DNA of 64,000 nt from Escherichia phage vB_EcoM_G2540. Location: sequence record MK327936.1; one strand, written 5' to 3'. Made by a program: the position numbers and the translations under genes. Position 1 is the first letter of the stretch; every line of letters starts with the position of its first letter. Shown piece by piece: positions 32,789 to 33,715 of this stretch. Below the pieces are notes generated by a model, which saw only the letters and a list, made by a program, of their open reading frames with translations, had not been told where the DNA came from and ran no database searches.

Positions 32789-32874
32789 TTTATTCTCCTT
32801 TGTTTGTGTAAGATAATACTATCACAAAGGAACCATACTGTAAACAACTTTATGCAATCTTTGGAAAATAAAAA

Positions 32875-32894
32875 AGGACTCCCGAAGGAGTCCT
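32875..32894. terminator. Stem-loop AGGACTCC-CGAA-GGAGTCCT
   Basis: 8-bp GC-rich stem with tetraloop immediately downstream of the basic small ORF. Confidence 0.5.
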
Positions 32895-32898
32895 CAAC

Positions 32899-33075
32899 TT
32901 ATGCTTTCTGCTTACCAAAACGAGAAGCATCATCTCGAAGAACCGCACGTGCTCGGCGCATGATCTTCTCAACAGTTTGATTGATACGAGAGTTCGACCC
33001 ACGCTTGTAGCCAGCGCGTTTAGAATCACCAACTTTCTTTTCAACTGCTTTCTTTGCTTTAGCTTGTTTTGCCAT
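32899..33075 (-). CDS. Small highly basic protein, about 58 aa (30.9 position)
   Basis: Lys/Arg-rich MAKQAKAKKAVEKKVGDSKRAGYKRG...; internal ATG at 33075 chosen over the track start. Confidence 0.45.
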   Translation of the reverse strand: MAKQAKAKKAVEKKVGDSKRAGYKRGSNSRINQTVEKIMRRARAVLRDDASRFGKQKA

Positions 33076-33319
33076 TATAAATTCTCTTTTAAATGAAAAT
33101 GCAGGACTTATTGGCATTGCCTGCGCAAGCCCTCAAGGGGAACATAGGTTTTTGGATATTTAACGACCAGGATAACCATAAACCCGTCATCATTCACATT
33201 CAAGAGGTACACCGTAAAACTGCCGGGGTCTTAAAACTATAATGATTCGCAAATCATTAATCAGACAGTTCGACGGCTCCTCGATTTAGCTCACACTAAG
33301 GCAGTGAATCTCCAATAAA

Positions 33320-33568
33320 TTACTTCAATGTTACCACAAAGTGACGAACTGCTTTTCGCGCAGCAGAAGCCAAAGGCTTAGCATATTTAAGTTCATCTTT
33401 TTCCTGAAGCTCAGCAGCTAATGCAGTTTGAGCAGGATTCAGATGTTTGAAATAACGCAGGATTTCAAGAGCTTCGGCTTCAACATCAATAGATGCGCCA
33501 TAGTTTTCGTGACCATTATTCCATGCGTTTCGTTGCAGTTCAAGAGCGTGTTGTAATTGTTTAATCAT
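33320..33568 (-). CDS. rIII: Lysis inhibition accessory protein RIII (82 aa)
   Basis: 82 aa; MIKQLQHALELQRNAWNNGHENYGASIDVEAEALEILRYF matches recalled T4 RIII. Confidence 0.85.
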   Translation of the reverse strand: MIKQLQHALELQRNAWNNGHENYGASIDVEAEALEILRYFKHLNPAQTALAAELQEKDELKYAKPLASAARKAVRHFVVTLK

Positions 33569-33715
33569 TTAAAAATTCTCGTTAGAGATTAAAACTCGGT
33601 AGTCACGTTCTTCTGAATTTCATCTTCTTTCGACAGATCTCTCAGTTGTAGACTACCACATAGAATTGTTCGGTTAACTTATTATTCCGACACCCAATTC
33701 ATATTATTATTTATA

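Follow-up and report, generated by a model that had tools for sequence, protein, structure and literature searches.

Toxin-antitoxin systems of type III, where an antitoxin RNA holds a nuclease in check, fire once phage-induced shut-off of transcription lets the labile RNA decay, according to one report (PMC10853763). The ToxI antitoxins of toxIN systems fall into five clusters in E. coli, and the cleavage motifs of the toxin ToxN are AA^AU and GAA^AU (PMC8860590). The tenpI antitoxins have units of 39-57 nucleotides (nt) that form H-type pseudoknots with a stretch of adenosines (PMC3401426, PMC12283969). Pectobacterium phage ΦTE escapes ToxIN through an intergenic RNA, pseudo-ToxI (Blower et al., 2012, PMC3475682). 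Here we describe the gap between genes rIII and 30.9 in a 64,000-nt stretch of Escherichia phage vB_EcoM_G2540 (MK327936.1; the whole stretch is referred to as the window). On the minus (gene-sense) strand this gap holds five RNA modules in the order F-E-A-B-C, and two of them, F and A, belong to families that resemble ToxI and tenpI. We judge with moderate confidence, largely by analogy, that the gap is a counter-defence locus of orphan antitoxin-mimic RNAs that would sequester abortive infection (Abi) nucleases of the ToxN/TenpN type. To our knowledge, mimicry of a type III antitoxin RNA has been shown experimentally for essentially one phage, ΦTE.

Like the T4 array, the pseudo-ToxI of ΦTE is an intergenic phage sequence that is non-coding and ToxI-like, has no toxin gene, and resembles the host's ToxI without being identical to it. 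Expression during infection and inhibition of ToxN by mimicry were shown for pseudo-ToxI, whereas the T4 array is known here from its sequence. The 1.5 tandem units of ΦTE become 4.5-5.5 in escape mutants, whereas phages of the T4 type have one unit among unrelated structured modules and, unlike ΦTE, have three distinct ToxI-type variants spread over different T4-like genera. Stand-alone inhibitors of toxin-antitoxin systems are a strategy also followed by a DarG-like orphan antitoxin of T4-like phages (PMC11825919) and by TifA (PMC10853763), but these are proteins. In the literature searched we came across no account of a ToxI- or tenpI-like RNA from a T4-like phage, and the papers on ToxIN escape in the T4 family, on TifA and on tenpIN in viruses mention no such RNA. 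A phage RNA antitoxin mimic is known from ΦTE; new here would be one that is widespread in the Tevenvirinae, T4 included, composite (ToxI-like, tenpI-like and other parts) and modular.

The region is 99.6-100% identical to those of T4T and Elenatom and matches 756 phage records; the window is phage T4. Genes on the minus strand follow the order cd, 31.2, 31.1, 31, rIII, 30.9, 30.8. A preliminary description, made from the letters of the window alone, had reported some 200 base pairs (bp) between the 30.x block and rIII without a plausible open reading frame (ORF). This is borne out, and the gap exceeds the first figure. The annotated start of 30.9 (ATG 33117, giving 72 amino acids) is not conserved, the extension it creates contains 1-nt indels in close relatives, and ATG 33075 (MAKQAKAKK...) is the start kept in 35 loci. 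Thus, the non-coding gap spans 33076-33319, or 244 nt, with no conserved ORF between the rIII stop codon (33320) and 30.9. Other gaps nearby in T4 measure 0-147 nt.

We consider it extremely improbable that a short protein-coding gene occupies the gap, be it a 34-amino-acid ORF on the minus strand (33089-33193, annotated in Elenatom) or a 49-amino-acid ORF on the plus strand (33093-33242). Both exist mechanically, one is annotated in one record, and AUGAUG stands ahead of module A in many variants. However, 1-nt indels among near-identical relatives shift the frame (GLWLSW becomes RFMVIL), the ORF has anywhere from 0 to 34 codons depending on the lineage (L022-type loci read AUG UAG), and a Shine-Dalgarno sequence is lacking.

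We took 40 rIII loci from viral contigs and located both rIII and 30.9 in 35 of them, with gaps of 120-422 nt. The array is non-coding, conserved, structured with covariation, modularly shuffled and accessory. Other lineages have dropped F or E, carry module G or the 145-nt module D between E and A, or have C swapped for module H; reordered arrays (B-A-G, Y-A-F-D-B-H and B-D-A) were also seen. Modules A and B+C are 92-100% identical, and module E 90-100% identical, to T4 where the coding sequence (CDS) of rIII is 82-86% and that of 30.9 is 67-89% identical at the nucleotide level. Better conservation of the modules than of the neighbouring genes indicates that they are under selection. At least 398 T4-like records retain the T4-type F/E junction, with identities of 90% or more in nearly all of them. 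Poor conservation among close relatives and a conserved short ORF, both of which the preliminary description had named as counting against it, were not seen: the interval is highly conserved, more so than the flanking CDS, and the gap contains no such ORF. The block cd-31.1-31-rIII is also present in more distant T4-like phages, but in them rIII abuts the next gene, and in one locus (L035) 9 nt separate rIII from a 30.9 homologue. Since the array is missing from these distant relatives, it is an accessory insertion, and expression of the operon is possible without it.

The G+C content of the interval as first drawn is 0.431, above that of the window (0.364; 92.6th percentile) and of the gap between 31 and rIII (0.32), so its description as comparatively GC-rich holds against the window; the flanking genes are alike (0.406 for rIII, 0.446 for 30.9), hence the enrichment is modest. 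Folding of both strands, which had been proposed as a check, gave z-scores of -1.8 (minus strand) and -1.1 (plus strand). Thermodynamics alone is thus unexceptional, and the case for structure is built on conservation and covariation.

Evidence for a relationship to toxIN comes from module F. In Klebsiella phages this module reads GGTGATTTGCTACCAAAGTGCAGCTAGAAA, reminiscent of the 36-nt ToxI repeat of toxIN. That repeat occurs at 100% in pECA1039 of P. atrosepticum as well as in 75 plasmids, of which 49 are E. coli plasmids, and its first 21 nt are part of a published primer (PMC5772629). In blastn comparisons of every phage module with the plasmid collection and with E. coli genomes, the F modules alone matched, and nearly all of the plasmid matches were to ToxI arrays. 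At this database size blastn is blind to the tenpI relation, the shared words being too short, and the missing matches for E, G, D and H are weak evidence. A profile built from six bacterial ToxI units only recognises module F of Mosigvirus-type phages at E = 1.7e-9 to 7e-7 and that of the Klebsiella-phage types at E = 1.8e-4 to 6e-4.

Each form of module F has a natural counterpart. The UGC/GCA type, carried by Klebsiella phages, is the ToxI of pECA1039-like plasmids; the CGC/GCG type, carried by Mosigvirus-type phages, is that of the E. coli IncX4 plasmid pU90-1 and of a Lelliottia plasmid; and the GGAG type, for which T4 is the carrier, is that of a chromosomal E. coli locus (TAAAATTGGAGATTCGCTACCATCAAGTGCGAACCA, four times). 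All three natural types sit upstream of ToxN/AbiQ toxins. The closest natural unit to the T4 copy is the GGAG-type chromosomal ToxI, with which it has ATTGGAGATTC.CT.CC in common. Natural toxIN loci were themselves seen to differ in ToxI type: one on the E. coli chromosome NZ_CM151387.1 (L093:1461-2158) has four 36-nt units of the GGAG type, and pU90-1 (L091:1203-1886) has alternating, non-identical units.

Seven natural ToxI and eight phage F units share a pseudoknot core in which 93.3% of cells are paired (slid controls, 36-72%). Compensatory changes occur at four of its seven pairs, which were deduced from covariation and not from a crystal structure. In T4 the second helix (UCAC/GUGA) is preserved via a G-C to A-U double change, and the third pair of the first helix is absent, as it is in natural GGAG-type ToxI. 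Like ToxI, module F has two short interleaved covarying helices, an A-rich 3' tail with AAAU and a unit of about 34-36 nt; in the ATK47-type F, AAAU is found on both sides. Unlike ToxI, it is not tandem and lacks the promoter-repeats-terminator-toxN layout, and in the T4 copy the loop is shortened and the 5' cleavage motif missing. In natural toxIN loci, 4-10 units precede ToxN/AbiQ; there is one F unit, and its neighbours are rIII and module E. Homology of the F family to ToxI repeats of toxIN is well supported by these comparisons. We rejected mimicry of a type I-F repeat of CRISPR (clustered regularly interspaced short palindromic repeats): the TTCACTGCC...CTAAA likeness is superficial, the stem register differs, and no CRISPR direct-repeat model matched.

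A second antitoxin relationship is that of module A to tenpI. A covariance model of the phage module (R1) finds the window copy at E = 6e-10, the only strong match in 64 kb, and recovers the module in three genomes outside its training set (E = 9e-7 to 4e-3). On ColRNAI plasmids from E. coli and K. pneumoniae, the same model picks out two units in tandem, which score 18.9 and about 12 bits (for the former, E = 0.005 in 7.8 kb and 0.12 in 194 kb). The pair has a TTGACT...TATAAT promoter on one side and a terminator on the other, and stands upstream of a 153-amino-acid protein that is a TenpIN family toxin (NCBIfam NF047358, 131 bits with a cut-off of 90). Units such as GTGGCGGTAGGAACATCCCCACGTAAAAAACCCAAATTCC are found on further tenpIN plasmids, from E. 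coli O157 (pNE92-2), K. pneumoniae, E. hormaechei and Edwardsiella; the tenpI type of L099-L101 is missed by R1. Module A of one phage locus, L028, reads GTGGTCGTTGTAGGTTATCCCCACGTAAAACACCCGAAACCTTC, and bacterial tenpI units and phage modules A have the stretch ATCCCCACGTAAAA[A/C]ACCC in common. A profile built from ten bacterial tenpI units only matches the L028 copy at E = 1.8e-4, those of L026, L027, L031 and L032 at about 3e-3, and those of L021 and L023 at 0.02-0.03.

Across 23 phage variants in a hand-registered alignment, 84.6% of the module A pseudoknot is paired, compared with 64.5% after shuffling and 28-52% in slid controls, and compensatory changes are present at 10 of the 13 pairs. 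A joint alignment of 14 phage and seven bacterial units, also registered by hand, is 84.8% paired with compensatory changes at 12 of 13 pairs; stem 2 goes from GGAA/UUCC in bacteria to GGUU/AACC in phages. Like tenpI, module A is an H-type pseudoknot of about 50 nt with a stem 1 of GUGG/CCAC, the motif ACGU(U/A)AAA, an A-rich strand crossing stem 1, and a stem 2. Unlike tenpI, the phage form is single and has no tenpN, stem 2 is changed on both strands, and in T4 stem 1 is changed as well (GACGGG/CCUGUC). The layout of tenpI (about two tandem repeats, a terminator and tenpN) is not found around module A, which is one unit with no toxin gene. We regard homology of the A family to tenpI as well supported by the combined alignments and profiles.

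In a pattern scan of viral contigs, module A was found only at this locus in T4-like phages and in phi92-like phages; the remaining pattern matches lie in coding DNA and were set aside as chance. Also discarded was a 187-amino-acid ORF of NZ_CP056218.1 as a TenpN candidate, the true tenpIN locus being on the opposite strand. On ColRNAI plasmids the annotation lists the E. coli tenpIN toxin only as a hypothetical protein, with an over-long CDS (L097, 1793-2419) that covers the antitoxin repeats.

We predict that the rIII-30.9 gap would be transcribed within the rIII-30.9 message as independently folding modules, at least two of which would be orphan copies of enterobacterial antitoxins, F descended from a ToxI repeat and A from a tenpI repeat. 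Shut-off of host transcription by T4 would let the unstable antitoxin RNA of the host decay and would free ToxN/TenpN nucleases to destroy phage RNA. Phage-made pseudoknots could then bind and re-inhibit the cognate toxin variants as decoys, by analogy with the pseudo-ToxI of ΦTE (PMC3475682), and the variants of different phage lineages would match different host ToxI clusters. From the same analogy we infer processing of the transcript, toxin binding, protection and continued activity of the diverged copies of T4. The occurrence of ToxI-type variants by genus, the compensatory changes, the accessory shuffling and the transfer across phage families fit an arms race better than they fit housekeeping mRNA structure.

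Several points weigh against this proposal. With the bacterial-only ToxI profile, F of T4 scores 8 bits (E = 0.59), which is weak, yet the best match in the window, and a GGAG-type ToxI used as a single-sequence query gives E = 2.9. The 3' flank of the T4 copy (GCUAAAUC) has AAAU, and the 5' flank (GUAAUUUAUU) has no cleavage motif of the AA^AU type. Positional orthology and intermediate phage variants assign it to the family, of which it would be a diverged member. The same applies to module A of T4, a probable diverged member placed via intermediates and position: the bacterial-only tenpI profile gives E of about 5 for T4-type copies in relatives and no match in the window at E<=10. Both F and A are single units, while antitoxins act as processed tandem repeats, and in ΦTE 1.5 units were insufficient for escape (PMC3475682). 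T4 counters toxIN through a protein, TifA, after gene amplification, as described in PMC10853763. For the pseudoknot counts, the alignments were brought into register with the proposed structures by hand, a procedure that works in favour of those structures, and counterparts were found for two of the five T4 modules but not for E, B and C. Lastly, T4 is presumably sensitive to the studied toxIN, and since it relies on TifA there, F would give no protection against that cluster.

E, B and C, together with G, D and H in relatives, are conserved structured RNAs. Both inverted repeats of the preliminary description proved to be real and to lie in these modules. The first (arms 33240-33247 and 33252-33259, 100% complementary) is the apical stem of module E, AAUGAUU/AAUCAUU in the RNA, and the second, GCAGG...CCTGC at 33101-33125, is module C. 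From 11 variants RNAalifold predicts 25 pairs for E, and compensatory changes affect five of these. The module also has invariant G-U pairs; as the opposite strand would have A-C in their place, the functional molecule should be the sense (minus-strand) RNA. We identified no relatives of E in Rfam, plasmids or E. coli genomes. A hammerhead-like CUGAU in this module was dismissed on reading the sequence, the core not being intact.

The strandedness of these pairs bears on the idea that the gap works at the level of DNA, as a replication origin, a packaging site or a mobile promoter cassette of the PeSL type, which we find scarcely credible. One relative carries an automated note, 'ori type 2 repeat', and the region is recombinationally active. 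However, no sigma-70-like promoter was found on either strand of 33076-33319, reading the sequence revealed neither the late-promoter motif TATAAATA nor a MotA box in the gap, and there are no iterons, repeats in the gap being limited to short chance matches. The structures need G-U pairs, and therefore a strand-specific RNA. The preliminary description had left the choice among a small RNA, a replication or packaging element and regulatory sites. Conserved, covarying structures on the transcribed strand speak for an RNA. The lack of iterons, the strand-specific G-U pairs and the absence of the array from distant T4-like phages with the same gene order speak against a role in replication or packaging. 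The homology of two modules to type III RNA antitoxins is an identity beyond those options. The gap has no Rfam family (searched at E<=10 in the window and E<=1 in eight related loci) and no tRNA by ARAGORN. A tRNA-like origin was also rejected, as there is no similarity to rnaC, rnaD or the tRNA region of T4.

Module B is found in nearly all array variants, with conserved flanks (GUNCC...GGRCUUG), a variable stem and loop, and 4-6 bp; it is too short for a statistical test. Its 3' half (GAGGGCUUGCG) resembles the terminator stem that follows the tenpI repeats of ColRNAI plasmids (CAGAGGGCUUUGC; L097:2292-2325, minus), a likeness likewise too short to test. There are hints in the sequence that A and B were captured together as a repeat plus terminator. 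The stem of module C becomes GAACUGG/CCAGUUC in L018 and L033, with GYCAAUAAG retained in the loop; RNAalifold favours an alternative in which GGGCUUG pairs with the loop, so the hairpin is a candidate structure only. B and C may be left over from the terminator at the end of antitoxin arrays, with a possible present-day influence on 3'-end formation or on the translation of 30.9 as well.

Such functions would also be expected if the gap were an ordinary cis-acting intercistronic region of the rIII-30.9 mRNA, with the antitoxin likeness a matter of ancestry only. Its roles would include ending or attenuation of the rIII transcript (by C and its U tract), 3'-end protection against exonucleases, provision of sites for RNase or RegB (two GGAG sequences) and control of 30.9 translation. 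T4 uses such mRNA hairpins. The array belongs to an operon with a strong terminator at its end, in every lineage a hairpin followed by a U-rich run comes last before the ribosome-binding site of 30.9, and module H takes a 5' untranslated region position ahead of rIII or of 30.9. We nonetheless think this explanation unlikely. In more distant relatives the same two genes are expressed across a gap of 9 nt or no gap at all, which makes the structures dispensable for the operon; module order and content vary freely while internal structure is kept; and phi92-like phages keep the array without an intact rIII or 30.9. In addition, the first GGAG is GGUG in many relatives, and a simple scan calls no intrinsic terminator in the gap, terminators being found only after 30.9 (32874-32895 and 32921-32937). 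Module C, with its 14-nt loop and interrupted U run, was not called. A cis-acting role and a decoy role are compatible and not mutually exclusive.

The modules found in the relatives extend this picture. Module H was found via a blastn match of 88% and has 17 pairs, nine of them compensatory by RNAalifold, including a closing stem that is GGUAGUC/GACUACC or GGGAGC/GCUCCC. It lies upstream of rIII in T4 and upstream of 30.9 in Klebsiella phages of the Jiaodavirus type. A late-promoter-like TATAAATA is present at 33708-33715 (minus), and in T4 module H lies between it and the start of rIII. Module G is located between E and A in arrays of the Mosigvirus and Dhakavirus types and is absent in T4. 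We rejected it as a second A-like unit: GGUUAUC is common to both, yet R1 detects no such unit. Module D has 44 predicted pairs, 17 of them compensatory, as well as GNRA loops and an invariant GCUAACGGUGUGCAACAGAU. At least 399 phage records contain it (Klebsiella, Escherichia, Enterobacter, Shigella and Yersinia phages), and it was seen nowhere but in the rIII-30.9 gap; it is absent from the window, where the empty site is between 33195 and 33196. With no match in Rfam or in bacterial genomes, D is a candidate for a new class of structured RNA on the basis of the predicted fold. A bolder and more doubtful possibility, which we offer tentatively, is that the gap is a hypervariable RNA counter-defence island throughout the Tevenvirinae. 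Each module (E, C, G, H, D, F, A) could then be a decoy or inhibitor of a different RNA-regulated or RNA-cleaving defence, swapped between genera and even families as small circular cassettes, and D and E would be new classes of structured anti-defence RNA.

Movement between families is suggested by phi92-like phages. In 17 of about 56-61 Justusliebigvirus records, phi92 included, a 337-bp insert is present in the tRNA cluster, between tRNA-Gly and tRNA-Gln. Its parts are the complete T4 F-E-A-B-C array (98-100% identical) and, after it, a fusion of the 30.9 ATG with the final 27 codons of rIII, so that the insert is circularly permuted. The array is co-oriented with the tRNA genes, and the insert is flanked by a direct repeat, TTTATTGGAGATT, of which the empty site in PHB05 (L090:1450-1475) has a single copy at the 5' end of tRNA-Gln. 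This arrangement suggests that a small circle was re-integrated by microhomology, with horizontal transfer between phage families. PeSL cassettes (Arbiol et al., 2010, PMC2839356) are likewise shuffled as modules in a variable gap, and the phi92 cassette shows circular permutation of the minicircle type. PeSL elements, however, combine an early promoter with a stem-loop, and the T4 gap has no promoter.

Another possibility is that the modules are decaying relics, pieces of toxin-antitoxin loci and other DNA that illegitimate recombination brought into a permissive gap, where they now have no function. The movement of such pieces by microhomology, as in the phi92 cassette, the far divergence of the T4 F and A modules from bacterial antitoxins, the occurrence of both as single units without a toxin gene, and the frequent loss of modules (L009, L010 and L023) are in line with this. 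Yet relics should not outdo the neighbouring genes in conservation as these non-coding modules do, many compensatory double changes keep the helices within phage lineages, and the T4-type F/E junction persists as described above. We regard this explanation as quite improbable and retain the orphan antitoxin-mimic RNAs as our proposal.

Features of the locus and its surroundings are collected in Table 1. A Pfam search with the 30.9 protein found no family. An early-promoter-like TTTACA-17-TAGTAT (32816-32844, minus) precedes 30.8. The match of Rfam family Atu_C8 over the terminator of 30.9 is below threshold (31 bits, gathering score 50) and is probably due to chance.

Table 1. Modules, genes and related features. 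Positions refer to the window unless preceded by an L number, our handle for another sequence.
Feature	Position	Strand	Description
Module F	33283-33316	minus	Single ToxI-like unit UGGAGAUUCACUGCCUUAGUGUGAGCUAAAUC; interleaved helices GG/CC and UCAC/GUGA; 3' AAAU
Module E	33196-33285	minus	Long irregular hairpin; three stacked helices; large asymmetric internal loop
Module A	33144-33193	minus	H-type pseudoknot; S1 GACGGG/CCUG(G)UC; loop with GGUU; A-rich L3 GUUAAAUAUCCAAA; S2 GGUU/AACC
Module B	33126-33143	minus	Mini-hairpin GUUCC-CCUUGA-GGGC, then UUG
Module C	33088-33125	minus	Hairpin GCAGG[CAAUGCCAAUAAGU]CCUGC with conserved 14-nt loop, then U-rich AUUUUCAUUU
Module H	33598-33657	minus	Long hairpin with GAAA loop, in the gap between 31 and rIII
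Module G	L002:1632-1677; L009; L021:1829-1855	minus (L002)	Hairpin with conserved loop AAAAGGUUA; internal-loop motifs GCGU / UCUAAG
Module D	L014:1881-2026; L031:1863-2009; 16 other viral contigs		Multi-helix RNA of about 145 nt
Gene rIII	33320-33568	minus	Upstream neighbour; the array starts 6 nt past its stop codon
Gene 30.9, conserved start	32899-33075	minus	58 amino acids, very basic; downstream neighbour of the array; from tblastn in 35 loci and alignment
Intrinsic terminator	32874-32895	minus	Strong; GAGGACUCCUUCGGGAGUCCUUUUUU; after 30.9, ends the operon
phi92-like inserts	L043:1281-1640; L044 (phi92 FR775895.2, about 53.4-53.9 kb)		

If the proposed counter-defence role is correct, T4 and hundreds of its sequenced relatives hold an unannotated non-coding counter-defence locus, the variants of which track different ToxIN clusters of the hosts and include the first mimic of tenpI. 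The locus would help to explain differences in host range of therapeutic T4-like phages on strains that carry toxIN or tenpIN plasmids, and would provide a natural panel of antitoxin variants for studies of toxin-RNA specificity. It would also make the intergenic 'junk' of phages worth screening for orphan RNA antitoxins.

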